Below are positions 10,957 to 18,177 of a DNA stretch of 59,859 nucleotides, piece by piece. A program made the position numbers and the translations under genes. The number at the start of each line of letters is the position of its first letter. Position 1 is the stretch's first letter. Origin of the DNA: Candidatus Levyibacteriota bacterium (GTDB taxonomy: Bacteria > Patescibacteriota > Microgenomatia > Levybacterales > GWA1-39-11); NCBI GenBank assembly GCA_036788695.1, contig DAIQMY010000001.1, positions 1-59,859 of the forward strand, read 5' to 3'. Under the pieces are notes generated by a model, which was not told where the DNA came from, made no database searches, and saw only the letters and a program-made list of their open reading frames with translations.

Positions 10957-11808
10957 TTAATCCCTTACAAAAAATGTTTCCCCTGCAGTTACTATCTCTA
11001 TGTCTCCTTTTTCATCTGTACGGAAAAAAGGAACTGAATAGGTCTTGAGCAATTCAAGTATAACTGGGCTTGGATGATTATACCTATTGCGCAAACCTAC
11101 AGATAAAATATCAAGTTTACTTTTCACAAGTTGGAATGTACTATCATCTGCCCCTGTCTTGCTTCCATGATGAGGAAGCTTAAAAATATCCACACTCAAA
11201 CCGTTCGGAAAAATTGTATGCAACCTCTCTTTCTCTATATCCCCTGTTAAAAGCATTGTAAACTTTCCATATGAAATTAATTGAACCAGAGAAAAGCTAT
11301 TTGTACTCTCAGATGCCATATTTTGAGAAACAAATTCTTGAGTTGGCCAAAATGTCGCCAGAACAATTCCATCAGGAGTTATATACTTATCACCATAAAC
11401 TAAATAGCGGACTGGAATATGATCATCCTTTAGCTCCCGCATGAGAGACTTAAAAATACCTGTTTTACTATCTTTTTTAGGAATATTAAACTGTTTAATA
11501 CGATACCCCTTCAAAATATATCTGTATCCCCCAATATGATCAGCATCGGGATGAGTCGCGAAAGCAAGCTCAATTTCCCTATCCCATAAAGGCATATGCT
11601 TTGAAAGACAATCAAGAATTTTATCATTGGGACCCGCATCCACCAAAATATCTAAACCCTGAGGAGTTCGCATCAGAATACCATCCCCCTGCCCTACATC
11701 ACAAAAGTATACATGCAACCTCTTATCGCTATGCTGGATGAACTGAAAAAAGATAAGACCACCTACAACACAGAACGAGATAAAAAATACAGCTAATCGG
11801 ATTTTCAT
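10957..11808 (-). CDS. ComEC-associated metallo-beta-lactamase-fold nuclease
   Basis: DVGQGD, THPDADHIGG, LTGD, HHGSKT, NRYNHPS motifs. Confidence 0.92.
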   Translation of the reverse strand: MKIRLAVFFISFCVVGGLIFFQFIQHSDKRLHVYFCDVGQGDGILMRTPQGLDILVDAGPNDKILDCLSKHMPLWDREIELAFATHPDADHIGGYRYILKGYRIKQFNIPKKDSKTGIFKSLMRELKDDHIPVRYLVYGDKYITPDGIVLATFWPTQEFVSQNMASESTNSFSLVQLISYGKFTMLLTGDIEKERLHTIFPNGLSVDIFKLPHHGSKTGADDSTFQLVKSKLDILSVGLRNRYNHPSPVILELLKTYSVPFFRTDEKGDIEIVTAGETFFVRD

Positions 11809-13040
11809 CTAGACTTTTTCACTTTCCCCCGTAAGAATACAGTAACTCCCAGGGCAAAAAAATAATATGATAGAAGAAACGGAATAGATATAGTTGAAAA
11901 TTCAAAAAGAGGAAATGATCCAAAAAAGCCGGTAATCATTTCAAAATATAAAAGAAGAGGATAAGAAATATAGAGGACTGGAACTGATACAATAGGTAAA
12001 GTAATAGCACAAACTGCTGCAATTCCCCCTAAAATCATAAGAAACGGAATTGTCCAAAGTACAAGAGCGTTCGCAAGTATAGAAACGAAAGAGTACGAAC
12101 CAAATACCCCTGCCATAACAGGCAAGCTTCCTATTTGGGACGCAATAGAAGTTGTAATATCATCTGAAAATATTTTTGTATTTTTAAATCTCCACAGTGA
12201 ATCGAATAATGGTTTACAGAAAACAATCCCAAGAGTTGAAGTAAAAGAAAGCAAAAATCCAACATCAAAAATTATCTCCGGTTGAACAAAAAGCATAAGC
12301 CAGGCGGTTATACAAAGAGCAAAAATGCCTGAATTTTGCCTCCCAAGTATTCCTGCGCTAAATGCTACACTTGCCATAACGCTTGCCCTCACAATAGAAG
12401 GAGAAAAGCCAGATAACAAAGCGTAGTAAAAAACCCCAAATATCGCGATTACTAATGCTTGCCTTCTCATAAGAAAACGTGAAAATAACGCTATCAGAAA
12501 GGATGCAACCATAGTAACATTCATTCCAGATGCAGCAACCACATGCAAAACTCCTGCATTTTTAAATGAAGACTTTGTATCTGATGTGAAGTCCTGACTC
12601 CCCCCAAAAACAATTCCAAATAAAAGCGCTGCCTCATTTTGAGGCAAATAGGAAAAGAATGTTTTAGAAATTCGTGTTCGTATGTATGACGCAGTTCTAA
12701 AAAATATGTTTGTGCTCTTTGTGCTCTTTATGACCGGGTTATGAATAACTAGATAGCTTACTACTTTCTTATTCTTTGCTTCAAATGATTCCTTATCAAC
12801 TATACCCTCTATATATATTTCGTCACCGTAGTGGACTTCATTCTCTTGTGGTATACGAATTTGAACTGATGAGACAGAAAAGGTCTTGACAAATTTATTA
12901 TTCTTCGGCTCTGAAAGAAGGGTAATTTTTTCTTGTAATGTGTCCCCGGGTAAATACTTTTTTTCATACGTAAAAAAGAATGCATACCTAATCCCCAAAG
13001 TTAAAAGGAGCACTATACAAATCAGGATAATGAATTTCAT
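11805..13040 (-). CDS. comEC: ComEC/Rec2 competence membrane protein
   Basis: GVLHVVAASGMNV, SIVRASVM, GFLLSF; lacks a fused MBL domain. Confidence 0.92.
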   Translation of the reverse strand: MKFIILICIVLLLTLGIRYAFFFTYEKKYLPGDTLQEKITLLSEPKNNKFVKTFSVSSVQIRIPQENEVHYGDEIYIEGIVDKESFEAKNKKVVSYLVIHNPVIKSTKSTNIFFRTASYIRTRISKTFFSYLPQNEAALLFGIVFGGSQDFTSDTKSSFKNAGVLHVVAASGMNVTMVASFLIALFSRFLMRRQALVIAIFGVFYYALLSGFSPSIVRASVMASVAFSAGILGRQNSGIFALCITAWLMLFVQPEIIFDVGFLLSFTSTLGIVFCKPLFDSLWRFKNTKIFSDDITTSIASQIGSLPVMAGVFGSYSFVSILANALVLWTIPFLMILGGIAAVCAITLPIVSVPVLYISYPLLLYFEMITGFFGSFPLFEFSTISIPFLLSYYFFALGVTVFLRGKVKKSR

Positions 13041-13046
13041 AAATAC

Positions 13047-13673
13047 TCATGGGCTGATCAGATCTTTTATTTTTGAAAATGTAGCAGCGCCTACTATTTT
13101 TTTTGAAAGCAATTCATCAACAGATGCGTATGGTCTTCCTCCAATTATTTTCTGAGCAGTAACGGAACCTACCCCAGGAAGTGACTCTAGCTCAGATTGA
13201 GATGAGGCGTTAATGCTAACTAAGCTACTGCTTGTTTTATCCATGAAAACTTGCGTATTTGATTGAGGAATTTGAGTTTCTCCTGCTTTAGGAATATATA
13301 TCTTTGCCTCGTCTTTTACTATTGCAGCAAGATTAATAGATTTTGAGACATACTCATAGTCTGCTAGGGTGGTTATTCCTCCGGCGGCATCTAAGGCATC
13401 TTGGATACGGGAACTACTTTTTAATCGGTAAACGCCAGGATTTACTACCTCTCCTGAAACATCTACCATAATTTCTGTTTCTTTTTTTTCAGTTGATAAT
13501 CCTTTTACCTCCTCCTCTGATTTAAATTCTATCTTACCACTCGGACTTAAAAGAAATTGGATCAAACCAATACTTAAGAATATCAAACCACCGGCTACCA
13601 AAGCTGAGAAAAGTAAATTTTGCCGTATTAAGATTAGGACGCTTTCACCTATTGAATTTGTTTCTTTATCCAC
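13047..13673 (-). CDS. comEA: ComEA DNA-binding protein (SLBB + HhH)
   Basis: VDVSGEVVNPGVY, INASSQSELESLPGVGSVTAQKII. Confidence 0.93.
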   Translation of the reverse strand: MDKETNSIGESVLILIRQNLLFSALVAGGLIFLSIGLIQFLLSPSGKIEFKSEEEVKGLSTEKKETEIMVDVSGEVVNPGVYRLKSSSRIQDALDAAGGITTLADYEYVSKSINLAAIVKDEAKIYIPKAGETQIPQSNTQVFMDKTSSSLVSINASSQSELESLPGVGSVTAQKIIGGRPYASVDELLSKKIVGAATFSKIKDLISP

Positions 13674-13740: not shown

Positions 13741-16700
13741 CTAGATTACGAAGTTTATAATTTTGAGAGGTATATAAATAGTTTTTTTAATTTCAGCTTC
13801 CGAAAGATACTTATCTACCTCTATCCGTGCTTGGTTTTCTAAATAGGTACGATCAGGCATTGGTTCCTCAACTTTTATTACCATTTCACCTCGTTTTTTC
13901 CCGTTTACTTGGATTACTATAGTTATCTGCTCTGAGGCAAGATACTTTTCATCCCACTCTGGCCACCCTGACAGATGAATTGAATCTTTTTGACTTAACA
14001 CACTATGCCACAACTCATCAGTCATAAACGGTGCAAACGGTGCAAGCAGCTTTAAAAATACTTCTGCCTCTTGTCTTGAAACCTCTTTATGGCTAGATAA
14101 AAAATTGTACCACTCCATAAGCCCTGCAATTGCAGTGTTATATTTAAATTCTGATATATCCTGCGTTACTCTCTTTATAGTCTTATGCATCATCCCTAAA
14201 CCTTCATCTGAAAGCTTAAAATCAGTAACAATTGAAAACTTCTTCCATACTCGTCTGATAAACCGATTCATACCCTCAATTCCTGAATCTCTGAAATCTC
14301 CGCCATCTGAGAAGGGACCTAAAAACATTAAGTATGCTCGAAGCGTATCAGCTCCATATTTCAGAATATATTCATCAGGCACCACTACGTTCCCTTTTGA
14401 TTTGCTCATTTTCGCTCCATCCTTAATAATAAGCCCATGAGCAAAAAAACTTTCAAAAGGTTCTTCAAAATCCACAAATTTTAAATCGTACAGTACCATC
14501 GATATAAATCGACTATATAAAAGGTGTAGCACTGAATGCTCTGCTCCGCCAATATACTTTTTAACAGGAAGCCAACGTTTTTGGATGGTTTTATCCCATG
14601 GAGTAAAATCTTTTTGATCTATTTTGATACCTCTGGATATACTTTTTGCATTTTTGTTATCACCAGTTATGAGAGGGTCTGAGATATAACCCAAGAAATA
14701 CCATGCACTATCCAGAAAAGTATCAGACACATCTGTTTCACGCTTTGCCTTACCATTACAGGAAGGGCAACTCGTTTCATAAAATTCAGGATGATTCGCA
14801 AGAGGAGAAAGCCCAGTACCCATTGGCTTCCAATCATCTACGTCAGGAAGTGCTATGGGTAAATCCTCAAGTGGCGCGGAAAACCATCCAGGCATTTCAA
14901 TTTTTTCCCCTTTACCAGATTTTTTACATGATTCACAAAATATCATAGGAATTGGTGGACCCCAATATCTCTGTCTTGAAATAAGCCAGTCACGTAAATG
15001 GTACTGAACCTTCTTTTGACCAATACCAGCTTCTATTAATTTGTTTACTACAGTATTCATGCCCTCAGCCACTTGCAACCCATTCCAAGCGCCAGAGTTA
15101 ATTAGCTTTCCTTCTCCCACATAAGCTCCCAGTTCAAGATTTGAATCTTTTGCTGTTATAACTTCTCTTATAGGAAGCTTGTGTTTTTTTGCAAAATCAT
15201 AATCTCTTTGATCATGTGCAGGAACTGCCATAATCGCACCTGTCCCATACCCCATGAGTACATAGTCTGCTACCCAGACTGGAATTTTCTCGTTATTTAT
15301 AGGATTTATCACATACTGACCTGAGAAAACACCTGTCTTTTCCTTTTCATCAGCAGTCCTTTCATTTTCTGACTTATTGTGTGCCCTTTTTACATATTCT
15401 GATACTTTATTCTCCACTCCCTCTCTGAGAAGTGAAGAGACAAATGGGTGCTCGGGAGATACGACAAGGAATGTTGCACCAAATAAAGTATCCGGACGAG
15501 TTGTAAAGACTTCAATTGAAGGAAGAAGGTGTTTTACTATTTCCGGTTCTGTCTCACCGGATAGATGATCTCCCTGTGCTACTACTTCAATAATCTTCCC
15601 GCCTATCTTTTCTCTTATAAAGTCCGCCCTTCCACCCGGAACGGCTGTATCATTAAGTGCTTTGAGTAATATAACTTCCCCCGCATTCTTTTTTATTTTT
15701 TCAAAATCAAACTTCCAATCAAATGTTTCCTCAAATGGTCTTTTATGATCCAGGAAGCCTGGCTCGGCAAAACCTGCTGCAAGCACTAAGCCACGAATGG
15801 GAACATCTAATCTTTCTACTACTTTTAAGGCAATAACTGATCCCAAGCTGTGACCAAATAAAATTGTATCTGCATCAAAAGAGTAATTATCTATAACATA
15901 CTGTACCTGCTCATCAACTGTTGGATTTTCTGTTTTTGGGAGGTTTGGAACCATTACAGTATGTCCCTTTTTCTCCAACTCAGCCTTAAGCCAAGGATGG
16001 AAGTTAGATGTAGAATCAGCGCCAAAACCATGAAGGTTGATAAATCGGTACTTTTTATCTATTGGGAACTCTATCACTGCACCAGTCTTTCTGCCAATCC
16101 AGTTACGTTGGGAAATTTTCACCTTCTCAGTCCAATCTAATGTCTCAATATTCTGAAGAAGTCTTTCCGCATAATCTGTAATTTTAAAAAACCATTGTTC
16201 TAAGTCTTTTTTTTCAACTACAGAAGAACAACGTTCGCATTTCCCATCAATTACCTGCTCGTCAGACAATACCGTCTTGCAGGATGGGCACCAATTCACT
16301 TCTGCTTTCTTACGGTATGCCAAGCCTGCTTGAAACAATTTTATAAATAACCACTGTGTCCATCTATAATATAAAGGATCATATGTCTCCAAGGTCCTAC
16401 TCCAGTCAAATGAGTTGCCAATACTCCTTAACTGTCTGTAATAGTTCTCCTGAGAAAGCTTTGCTTGATCTTTGGGGTGACGCCCCACCTTGAGGGCATA
16501 GTTTTCTGAATGAATCCCAAATCCGTCTAAACCGATTGGCTCAAAAACGTCACTCCCCTTCATTCTATTAAACCGAGCGTATACATCAGCACCCGTAAAG
16601 GCATACATATTCCCCACATGAAGCCCTTCCGCAGAAGGGTAAGGGAACATCATTAAGTTAAAATAAGGTTTACTAGCGTTGAGTAAATCAGGCGTAAATG

Positions 16701-16770
16701 TTTTATCACTCTCCCATTTACTCTGCCATTTAGCCTCGATTTCCTGATGATTATAGGATAAATCCTTCAT
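13741..16770 (-). CDS. leuS: leucine--tRNA ligase with inserted alpha/beta hydrolase domain
   Basis: MFPYPSAEGLHVGN, FTTRPDTLFG, GTGAIMAVPAHDQRD, KMSKS; insert at about 15520-16053 contains GHSLG. Confidence 0.97.
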   Translation of the reverse strand: MKDLSYNHQEIEAKWQSKWESDKTFTPDLLNASKPYFNLMMFPYPSAEGLHVGNMYAFTGADVYARFNRMKGSDVFEPIGLDGFGIHSENYALKVGRHPKDQAKLSQENYYRQLRSIGNSFDWSRTLETYDPLYYRWTQWLFIKLFQAGLAYRKKAEVNWCPSCKTVLSDEQVIDGKCERCSSVVEKKDLEQWFFKITDYAERLLQNIETLDWTEKVKISQRNWIGRKTGAVIEFPIDKKYRFINLHGFGADSTSNFHPWLKAELEKKGHTVMVPNLPKTENPTVDEQVQYVIDNYSFDADTILFGHSLGSVIALKVVERLDVPIRGLVLAAGFAEPGFLDHKRPFEETFDWKFDFEKIKKNAGEVILLKALNDTAVPGGRADFIREKIGGKIIEVVAQGDHLSGETEPEIVKHLLPSIEVFTTRPDTLFGATFLVVSPEHPFVSSLLREGVENKVSEYVKRAHNKSENERTADEKEKTGVFSGQYVINPINNEKIPVWVADYVLMGYGTGAIMAVPAHDQRDYDFAKKHKLPIREVITAKDSNLELGAYVGEGKLINSGAWNGLQVAEGMNTVVNKLIEAGIGQKKVQYHLRDWLISRQRYWGPPIPMIFCESCKKSGKGEKIEMPGWFSAPLEDLPIALPDVDDWKPMGTGLSPLANHPEFYETSCPSCNGKAKRETDVSDTFLDSAWYFLGYISDPLITGDNKNAKSISRGIKIDQKDFTPWDKTIQKRWLPVKKYIGGAEHSVLHLLYSRFISMVLYDLKFVDFEEPFESFFAHGLIIKDGAKMSKSKGNVVVPDEYILKYGADTLRAYLMFLGPFSDGGDFRDSGIEGMNRFIRRVWKKFSIVTDFKLSDEGLGMMHKTIKRVTQDISEFKYNTAIAGLMEWYNFLSSHKEVSRQEAEVFLKLLAPFAPFMTDELWHSVLSQKDSIHLSGWPEWDEKYLASEQITIVIQVNGKKRGEMVIKVEEPMPDRTYLENQARIEVDKYLSEAEIKKTIYIPLKIINFVI

Positions 16771-16864
16771 AGATATTTTCAAGTATAGCATGCCTGCATT
16801 TATTTCTAAATACCTAAAGGGTAATTTGCTTGCAGATTTATCTTTTTGTGAATATAATTTATAT

Positions 16865-17473
16865 ATGAAATACCTAACACAAAGCGCGGTGCTTCTTCTC
16901 TCTACAGTTTTTGTATTAATAGTTGCTGAAACTCCCCTTTCCCCCTATATCCCTGCCTTTCTTATCTTAATAGGTATAGTCAGCACTATTTATACAATTA
17001 TCTTAAAACGAAAACGCCGCGGCCAAGAAGTATTTCTAGGCAACAACAAAGAGGTATTTACTATTATTGTGTTTGTGCTTCTCATAATCTTTCTGACAGG
17101 TGGAATACGCTCACCTATCTTTTTTCTAACTTATTTTATCTTCTTTGGTCTTGCATTTATTTTTGAGCCTGTAATGATCTTTTTCTTTCTCCTGTGTCTT
17201 GTTGGAATATTTGTTCCTCAAGCGATACAGGATGATGTATTTGGTAATATTTTGAAACTGTTATCTCTTCTCTTTTTATCTCCAATTGCGTACTTCTTTG
17301 GGAGGGAATATAAACGTCGCGAGAGAATACAGCAAAAAATTAAAGATTCAACTGAAATTATTATAGATGAAGCAAAAGATATGATAAAAGCAAAAGATAA
17401 GAATGAAAGATTAAGAAAAGCAGAAGATATAATTGAAGTTGCACATGAACTACAAAAAGAAACAAAGCAATAA
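16865..17473 (+). CDS. hypothetical integral membrane protein with coiled-coil tail
   Basis: Several hydrophobic segments and a charged C-terminus; TATAAT lies 6 nt before ATG 16865. Confidence 0.75.
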   Translation: MKYLTQSAVLLLSTVFVLIVAETPLSPYIPAFLILIGIVSTIYTIILKRKRRGQEVFLGNNKEVFTIIVFVLLIIFLTGGIRSPIFFLTYFIFFGLAFIFEPVMIFFFLLCLVGIFVPQAIQDDVFGNILKLLSLLFLSPIAYFFGREYKRRERIQQKIKDSTEIIIDEAKDMIKAKDKNERLRKAEDIIEVAHELQKETKQ

Positions 17474-18177
17474 TGAATAAGGCGATCCTTATACTCCCAT
17501 TTGTTCTAGGATTTGTTGCGTCAAGGGCATATGCTGCACCTATGTCAAACTCTGACTACTTTTTAAACTTAGAAATGAGCACTACAGAGGAATATATTAA
17601 GCCTGCAGACAAGAGCCTTCCCGCACCTGAAGTGCCAAAAGCAAACCAGATTACGGGAGATGGTTATATTATTATTTTCACGCCAGAAAACGAAGAGATA
17701 AAACCGCTTTCCATCTCAAGCACTAACAATAGTATCAATTTTGGAGAAATAATCCCAGGAGAACCTCTTACACGTACTCAATCTATTACCGTACATCCTG
17801 CGACAAATAAGGGTTTTCAATTGATGGGATATGAAGACCATAGCCCTTCACAAGGAGAATTTTCAATTCCAGATACATCATGTGATTCTGGAAATTGTAA
17901 CAATACGCTATCTGAATCCTGGGAAAACCCCTTAACTTATGGCTTTGGCTATTCTTGTTCTAACGTTGAAACAAAAACGTGCGATAATGGTTTTAGTGAT
18001 AACAGATACAAAAGCTTTTCAAATGATTCCGCATTAGAAGAGCCCAAGACCATACTTGAATCAGATACAAGCAGCGTTGCAAAAGCGGTAATAACCTACA
18101 AGCTAAACATACCAGGCACACAACCTCAAAAAGCGTATCGCAATACAGTATATCTTATTGCCGTGCCTAAATTATAA
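17473..18177 (+). CDS. secreted WxL-like surface protein
   Basis: Signal peptide (AYA-A), INFGEI, YGFGYSC, ITYKLNI...YRNTVYLIAVP pattern; family assignment is an inference. Confidence 0.6.
   Translation: MNKAILILPFVLGFVASRAYAAPMSNSDYFLNLEMSTTEEYIKPADKSLPAPEVPKANQITGDGYIIIFTPENEEIKPLSISSTNNSINFGEIIPGEPLTRTQSITVHPATNKGFQLMGYEDHSPSQGEFSIPDTSCDSGNCNNTLSESWENPLTYGFGYSCSNVETKTCDNGFSDNRYKSFSNDSALEEPKTILESDTSSVAKAVITYKLNIPGTQPQKAYRNTVYLIAVPKL

Follow-up and report, generated by a model that had tools for sequence, protein, structure and literature searches.

A predicted YdeN/RBBP9-type serine hydrolase nested in frame in the leucyl-tRNA synthetase of a Candidatus Levyibacteriota bacterium

What is a second enzyme doing inside an aminoacyl-tRNA synthetase? 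The question is raised by leuS, the gene for leucyl-tRNA synthetase (LeuRS), in a 59,859-nucleotide stretch of DNA from a Candidatus Levyibacteriota bacterium (GenBank assembly GCA_036788695.1, contig DAIQMY010000001.1, positions 1 to 59,859), referred to here at its full length as the window. Here, we report that the LeuRS encoded on its minus strand carries an insert predicted to be a whole alpha/beta serine hydrolase, and we weigh what such a domain might do there. A first-pass annotation, made from the DNA letters, had placed an alpha/beta hydrolase in frame between the peptides GAVIEFPID and SIEVFTTRPD, at about 15520 to 16053 and with a length of about 178 amino acids (aa). Direct translation confirmed the placement; the start at 15520 stood, while the other end was measured at 16056, which gives 179 aa. 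The features that define the insertion are as follows.

13741..16770, minus strand: leuS, bacterial-type leucyl-tRNA synthetase, 1009 aa from Met8 (TIGR00396; AlphaFold2 model)
16057-16083, minus strand: GAVIEFPID, left flank of the insert (translation)
15520..16056, minus strand: predicted YdeN/RBBP9-type alpha/beta serine hydrolase insert, 179 aa, residues 246-424, KKYRF...KHLLP (PF06821; match to 1uxo; AlphaFold2 model)
15490-15519, minus strand: SIEVFTTRPD, right flank of the insert (translation)

Residue numbers refer throughout to the 1016-aa open reading frame (ORF) counted from the first ATG (13741..16791, minus strand; ATG at 16791), and subtracting 7 converts them to the numbering of the 1009-aa protein. 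The true start is probably Met8 at 16770, because the database copy of the protein (P0002) is 1009 aa long.

The insertion point had been put at the beginning of the CP1 editing domain, and the Pfam profile of that domain agreed. PF13603 (LeuRS editing domain) picks up again at residue 425, at position 22 of the 185 in the profile; the insert therefore lies in the loop between the first two CP1 strands, that is, in the first beta-hairpin of the domain. By sequence, the first Thr of the T-rich editing motif follows its C-terminal junction at a distance of five residues. The same hairpin loop is 4-20 residues long in the insert-free LeuRS of the window's order. The site is distinct from the "CP1 hairpin" of the LeuRS literature, a name that denotes the neck of the Zn module (PMC4138327).

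Sequence searches and structure modeling both identify the insert as a complete alpha/beta hydrolase without a lid, a member of the YdeN/RBBP9 family. The profile search proposed in the first pass returned PF06821 (Ser_hydrolase) at 27.0 bits when the insert was searched by itself and at 22.4 bits when it was searched as part of the full protein (gathering cut-off, 22), and Pfam Abhydrolase_1 matched the insert alone at 1.7e-8. Searched against the sequences of the PDB, the insert found Bacillus subtilis YdeN (1uxo; E value, 5.8e-13) and human RBBP9 (E value, 5e-7), with 20-23% identity to the solved YdeN/RBBP9 structures. An AlphaFold2 model of the insert alone (pLDDT, 96.6; pTM, 0.93) superposed on 1uxo with TM scores of 0.85/0.82 and a root-mean-square deviation (rmsd) of 2.4 Å, and on RBBP9, including the structure with bound Phe (7OEX), with TM scores of 0.84/0.83; over YdeN and RBBP9 together, the rmsd was 2.4-2.6 Å. 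The original assignment to RBBP9/YdeN-like hydrolases is thus upheld by sequence and by fold (TM, 0.84-0.85). The next fold class found in the structure search with the insert model was that of the lidded esterases, with a TMt of at most 0.57. Pfam, NCBIfam, and PDB gave alpha/beta-hydrolase families only; none of the known aminoacyl-tRNA editing or deacylase folds (CP1, YbaK/INS, AlaX, D-aminoacyl-tRNA deacylase [DTD], and peptidyl-tRNA hydrolase [Pth]) matched the insert.

The motifs GHSLG (at 15841-15855), NDTAVP, and GDHL had been read as a Ser-Asp-His set; each was found where it had been placed, and the set proved to be real and conserved.

15841..15855, minus strand: GHSLG, nucleophile elbow, with the Ser315 codon at 15847-15849 (aligns with RBBP9 Ser75)
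15649..15651, minus strand: Asp381 in NDTAVP, predicted catalytic acid (aligns with Asp138 in the RBBP9 DDPFLP stretch)
15565..15567, minus strand: His409 in GDHL, predicted catalytic histidine (conservation)
16027..16032, minus strand: His254-Gly255 after the first strand of the insert, likely oxyanion-hole motif (conservation and general knowledge of alpha/beta hydrolases)

In the HMMER alignment, His409 was offset by one residue from the histidine in GGHF of YdeN. A search limited to the insert region recovered 64 protein clusters, all with LeuRS domains plus the insert, nearly all of LeuRS length, and most annotated with PF06821; the triad was kept in 62 of them, one of the other two having Glu for Asp and one being perhaps misaligned. 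It was also invariant in an alignment of 30 embedded and free-standing relatives. Across 127 synthetase-embedded relatives, the nucleophile was Ser in all 127, the acid was Asp in 106 and Glu in 16 (122/127), and the histidine was present in 126; the HG motif (H in 120/127, G in 122/127) and the GxSxG elbow were kept as well. The ratio of nonsynonymous to synonymous substitution rates (dN/dS), taken between the window and two sister species at a dS of about 0.9-1.0 (near saturation, not past it), was 0.11-0.12 for the insert, 0.13-0.16 for CP1, 0.12 for the C-terminal part, and 0.03 for the N-terminal core. The insert is therefore under purifying selection equal to that on CP1, and, judged by its residues (Ser315, Asp381, His409, and the HG motif), the hydrolase is very probably catalytically active.

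The enzyme around the insert reads as an intact, working LeuRS of the bacterial type by its sequence. It scored 875.6 bits against TIGR00396 (the leuS_bact equivalog; cut-off, 548.4), and the insert cuts that match cleanly at profile position 239 with both sides complete; since the profile is split without a gap, no LeuRS residues have been lost. The parts of the host enzyme and its motifs are listed here from the N terminus.

16057..16770, minus strand: N-terminal half of the catalytic core with the Zn module and the first CP1 strand, ending in GAVIEFPID (TIGR00396 positions 1-239)
16609-16620, minus strand: HVGN, a variant of HIGH, residues 58-61 (translation)
14992..15519, minus strand: rest of the CP1 editing domain (PF13603, 1.7e-64; residues 425-585, profile positions 22-184)
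15487-15504, minus strand: TTRPDT, T-rich editing motif (translation)
15202-15219, minus strand: AHDQRD, editing motif with the conserved Asp (AHDxRD) (translation)
13744..14991, minus strand: second half of the catalytic core, anticodon-binding domain, and C-terminal domain (Pfam Anticodon_1, 8.9e-23)
14398-14412, minus strand: KMSKS (translation)

TTRPDT, AHDQRD, and KMSKS are all intact. Nearly every LeuRS of the window's family has HVGN, which is therefore a lineage trait, not damage; many LeuRS of the sister family have it too, and other members of the order retain HVGH. An AlphaFold2 model of the full-length protein (64 homologues; pLDDT, 88.9; pTM, 0.81) had its best PDB matches in the LeuRS of Thermus thermophilus and Escherichia coli (TMt, 0.82-0.84). 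The window genome (G000; 1.04 Mb, 99.9% complete) contains one LeuRS-level match in all. The closest named relatives of the window LeuRS come from metagenome-assembled genomes (MAGs) of Candidatus Levybacteria/Levyibacteriota, and because their public records say "leucine--tRNA ligase" and nothing more, the hydrolase is invisible in the annotation.

How far the arrangement extends was determined from sampled genomes and from protein searches. In three other species of the window's genus, the insert is found in frame at the identical codon position, with identities of 83, 81, and 65%. Among 401 sampled genomes of the phylum, 151 had a homologue at an E value of ≤1e-5; about 32 of these had the domain in a LeuRS-sized frame (about 8% of sampled Patescibacteria), and the others had it as free-standing ORFs of 175-230 aa. 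The window genome and one other were the only carriers of an embedded copy among 301 genomes of the window's class. Within the order, the embedded form was found in four of the five species of the window's genus, all three species of genus g532, and genome G614. None of these eight genomes has a free copy in addition, and the other 33 genomes of the order divide into 12 with one free copy and 21 with none. When the tree of LeuRS is built with the insert columns removed, the genus is recovered, with its insert-free species (G692) as sister to the four insert-bearing ones (SH-aLRT, 99), and at least three gains or losses of the insert are needed on this tree within the order. Named hosts include Levyibacteriota, Uhrbacteria, Paceibacterota, Magasanikbacteria, and Parcubacteria. 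The hydrolase also occupies the same hairpin site of a bacterial-type LeuRS in MAGs labeled Pacearchaeota, Woesearchaeota, or "archaeon" (L075, L077, L078, L079, and L083), which reflects either gene transfer between the Candidate Phyla Radiation (CPR) and DPANN or mis-binning.

An exhaustive, profile-free search yielded 1572 relatives and extended the picture beyond one loop and one synthetase. The survey of CPR LeuRS inserts that the first-pass annotation had recommended thus found the hydrolase recurring, beside other cargo, at the hairpin and elsewhere; it sits at three LeuRS sites, namely the first CP1 hairpin, a position after CP1, and a position after RQRYWG..CxxC. At the last of these, in two proteins (L084 and L086, from Magasanikbacteria and a "Saccharibacteria"-labeled MAG), the hydrolase comes directly after RQRYWG..CxxC and before PVPExDLP. 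The same hydrolase clade occurs within a valyl-tRNA synthetase (ValRS; P0080, residues 650-826, Val_tRNA-synt_C present) and, in a Candidatus Parcubacteria MAG, within an isoleucyl-tRNA synthetase (IleRS)/ValRS-like enzyme with a DTLDTWFSS motif (L088). It is also found in tandem with NUDIX, GNAT, or HAD domains, or as two tandem copies. Relatives in the window's family, some with the hydrolase and some lacking it, have a NUDIX domain in a second loop of CP1, which follows residue 551; at this NUDIX position, the leuS of L050 (G652) has an insert of about 110 aa with no Pfam match. One LeuRS (P0131) carries, in frame at the CP1 hairpin site (residues 269-374), an IS200-type Y1 transposase domain, with the hydrolase further downstream; this domain hints at how such cassettes may arrive. 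In six further cases (P0041, P0066, P0078, P0107, P0109, and P0145), the called protein starts exactly at the hydrolase and continues into CP1 from profile position 21; either leuS may be divided at the point of insertion in these cases, or the starts may be miscalled.

The history of the insert was compared with that of its host. Pairwise identities of the insert and the LeuRS backbone correlate weakly (Spearman, 0.17), with means of 0.53 and 0.50, respectively. Approximately unbiased (AU) tests rejected congruence of the insert and host trees, with log-likelihood differences of 545-586; as a control, an equal length of CP1 also rejected the tree of the rest of LeuRS (difference, 251). Because the control is rejected too, the AU test is over-sensitive here, and our claim is limited to the insert being 2-4 times more incongruent. 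Strongly supported splits of the insert tree conflicted with strongly supported backbone splits in 4 of 12 cases, against 1 of 9 in the control, and P0049 is a clear case. We conclude that the insert is co-inherited in shallow clades, the window's genus among them, with occasional exchange and repeated loss or gain.

What the hydrolase might act on is suggested by its best-known relative and by its location. In a charged tRNA, the amino acid is ester-linked to the adenosine at the 3' end and its amine is free, and the non-cognate amino acids that LeuRS has to reject are hydrophobic. Among the members of the family, only RBBP9 has a defined chemistry. Substrate trapping has shown it to form acyl-enzymes with a single Leu/Ile, Met, Phe, Tyr, or Trp, cleaving an amide or an ester, and it requires a free alpha-amine, which is held by Glu108 (PMC8866121). 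It is also reported to activate valacyclovir, in which L-valine is esterified to a nucleoside analogue (Shenoy et al. 2020, as cited in PMC7730578). By analogy with RBBP9, the nested domain would hydrolyze the acyl bond of a hydrophobic aminoacyl group with a free amine. This chemistry, set beside the structure of the charged tRNA end and the hydrophobic non-cognates, is our ground for proposing aminoacyl-adenosine substrates: for a domain tethered to CP1, the likeliest would be species of that type arising at LeuRS, whether the mis-acylated 3' end of tRNA(Leu), an aminoacyl-adenylate, or a mimic of such an adenylate. The hydrolase would then be an accessory, dispensable clean-up module, and because no CP1 editing motif is damaged, it would supplement the editing done by CP1 and not substitute for it. 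Clearance of aminoacyl-adenosine-type species at LeuRS as a supplement to CP1 editing is the explanation that we favor, tentatively and as something short of probable. The earlier suggestion of an esterase that helps in editing, or whose substrates are acylated tRNA or metabolites, stays an inference, likewise chemically reasonable in the light of RBBP9.

Besides the family and fold of the insert, its conserved triad, the selection on it, the intact host, and the chemistry of RBBP9, three observations speak for this explanation. First, when 222 domains were placed in one tree, those embedded in synthetases grouped together (SH-aLRT, 95) with a few free-standing members among them, and most free CPR homologues fell outside this clade. 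The clade has residues of its own near the active site, namely Gln295, an F346-x-D348-x-x-R351-P-F353 loop, Trp359, a small residue at 383 (the position of the cage residue Phe140 in RBBP9), and Glu415-Pro416; the free forms differ, with Trp at 295, no F-x-D-x-x-R-P-F loop, and Tyr or Trp at 383. Second, the domain recurs in synthetases. Third, no genome of the order has both an embedded and a free copy.

Other results weigh against it. The residue that holds the amine in RBBP9, Glu108, maps to the loop that is remodeled in the embedded clade, where it has no secure equivalent and may align with Arg351. The fifth species of the window's genus (G692) has a 4-residue loop in place of the insert, and about half of the order's genomes have neither an embedded nor a free copy; the insert and its activity are therefore dispensable. 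Free-standing homologues lay near leuS in only 1 of the 17 cases checked (L068, the same as G214, about 900 bp upstream). The same loops hold unrelated cargo (NUDIX, GNAT, HAD, and the IS200-type transposase domain), which fits a merely permissive site.

These points lend themselves to the main rival account, in which the insert is a passenger: an active enzyme with a substrate unrelated to LeuRS, such as a peptide or a small ester, for which the CP1 loops are permissive landing sites. A small enzyme could be kept and expressed cheaply in a reduced genome by being fused to a gene that is essential and steadily expressed. Besides the mixed cargo of these loops, which extends to a tandem second hydrolase, the account draws on the variable presence of the insert within one genus and its three or more changes within the order, on the abundance of free homologues in CPR, where LeuRS-sized frames make up about 32 of the 151 matching genomes, and on the scarcity of free copies beside leuS. 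Set against it are the three observations above: the embedded domains are a clade of their own, marked by conserved residues close to the active site; almost every host found is a class Ia synthetase (LeuRS, ValRS, or IleRS/ValRS-like), with the domain at several independent sites; and embedded and free copies do not meet in any genome of the order. A passenger is possible but, on this balance, unlikely.

Clearance of aminoacyl-adenosine species also has a neighbor in built-in immunity. Natural Trojan-horse inhibitors of the agrocin-84/TM84 and microcin-C kinds are tight-binding mimics of adenylates, and the hydrolase, together with the NUDIX, GNAT, and HAD cargo, might destroy or modify such aminoacyl-adenylate mimics, which poison class Ia synthetases, directly at the target enzyme. 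A hydrolase of the aminopeptidase-like kind, dependent on a free alpha-amine and a hydrophobic side chain, would have the chemistry to cut Leu-NH-X; the strain-variable, cassette-like, and partly exchanged distribution resembles that of accessory resistance genes more than that of housekeeping genes; and NCBIfam already has an IleRS family with an N-acetyltransferase domain (NF040702). Yet the GNAT cargo examined is generic (RimI-, phosphinothricin-, and spermidine-acetyltransferase-like) and not specifically of the microcin-C immunity type, and the CP1 control shows that noise could account for much of the mobility that the cassettes seem to have. Genes for inhibitor biosynthesis were not seen, in work that made no search aimed at them. 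We consider immunity improbable.

A module without catalytic function, whether structural, tRNA binding, or docking, with the triad as a relic, has two general points behind it: RBBP9 was first described as a binding protein, and lineage-specific extensions are frequent in CPR synthetases. Relic triads decay, whereas Ser (127/127), His (126/127), Asp/Glu (122/127), the HG motif, and the GxSxG elbow have all been kept in the embedded domains; these invariant residues, together with a dN/dS of 0.11, argue for catalysis and leave a purely non-catalytic role very unlikely.

Less likely still is that the hydrolase stands in for a missing deacylase such as DTD. The 99.9% complete window genome has no DTD (PF02580), but 36 of the 41 genomes of the order also gave no DTD match, whatever their hydrolase status; all three g532 species have both DTD and the embedded hydrolase, and Pth is present in the window genome. 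Replacement of DTD was rejected, there being no anticorrelation between DTD and the hydrolase and both being present in g532.

An assembly chimera or annotation artefact, an outcome that would have undone the observation and for which nothing speaks except the general risk of metagenome bins, can be dismissed as a negligible prospect, because the insert stands at the same codon in three other species of the genus (65-83% identity), is shared by no fewer than 64 protein clusters that come from independent assemblies, as well as by named MAGs from several phyla, has a GC content (0.397) like that of the remaining leuS (0.388), and splits the LeuRS profile without loss.

Compared with characterized proteins, the insert shares with YdeN (1UXO) and RBBP9 (2QS9, 7OEX, and 9FCR) a minimal, lid-less fold of about 180 aa, the GHSxG elbow, and the Ser/Asp/His order; unlike these solved relatives, which are free proteins, it is nested in a synthetase and has its own loop, Gln295, Trp359, and Glu415-Pro416. 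The substrate pocket of RBBP9 combines a hydrophobic cage with an acidic ligand for the free alpha-amine (Glu108); of its residues, Tyr99 corresponds to Phe341 of the insert, Leu141 to Val384, and the cage residue Phe140 to Ala383 (A, I, or V in the embedded clade), while Glu108 has no secure counterpart. Its host has the same architecture as canonical LeuRS (T. thermophilus, 2BTE/1H3N; E. coli, 4AQ7/4ARC), with KMSKS, TTRPDT, and AHDxRD, and differs from it in having a 179-aa enzyme where insert-free relatives have a hairpin loop of 4-20 residues, and HVGN for HIGH. If our favored explanation holds, YbaK/ProX, AlaX, DTD, and CP1 would resemble the insert in hydrolyzing an aminoacyl ester to clean up synthetase errors, but they are unrelated to it in fold and in catalytic mechanism; to our knowledge, a Ser-Asp-His acyl-enzyme mechanism is used by none of these known editing and deacylase modules. 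The nearest parallel in arrangement is NF040702 ([quoted passage not shown]), likewise a class Ia synthetase with an extra small enzyme, in which the host is IleRS and the cargo is GNAT. Its existence means that a class Ia synthetase with an enzyme nested inside it has a precedent and that curators have noticed such fusions. Full-text literature searches found no description of a serine hydrolase in LeuRS, and no equivalent family was found.

Synthetase proofreading is a two-sieve system that draws on a few known editing folds. If an editing or detoxifying role is true, the insert would bring to it a new activity with a catalytic mechanism foreign to known editing domains; otherwise, it would be a striking case of an enzyme hitch-hiking inside an essential gene of minimal genomes. 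The arrangement reaches about 8% of the sampled Patescibacteria genomes, DPANN-labeled archaea, and other class Ia synthetases. A more ambitious proposal would see in the hydrolase, along with the NUDIX, GNAT, and HAD cassettes of the same CP1 loops, a new, third type of site by which a class Ia synthetase controls quality or protects itself: a Ser-Asp-His acyl-enzyme module that strips hydrophobic aminoacyl groups from tRNA(Leu), aminoacyl-adenylates, or natural inhibitors mimicking adenylates, in a cassette system exchanged among the LeuRS, ValRS, and IleRS genes of CPR and DPANN in the manner of resistance genes; taken as a whole, this is doubtful.

Two LeuRS of other genomes in the window's order, L035 (G690) and L043 (G627), have a degenerate T-rich motif, TFSAHFEA and MFDSVPQT, respectively, instead of FTTRPDT, and both genomes have a free YdeN-like hydrolase; with two cases, a trans-editing link is only a lead. 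Around leuS in the window, two divergent ORFs upstream (16790-18177) gave no Pfam match, and downstream, on the same strand as leuS, lie a ComEA-like gene (SLBB plus HhH) and a ComEC-like competence gene (11805-13673).

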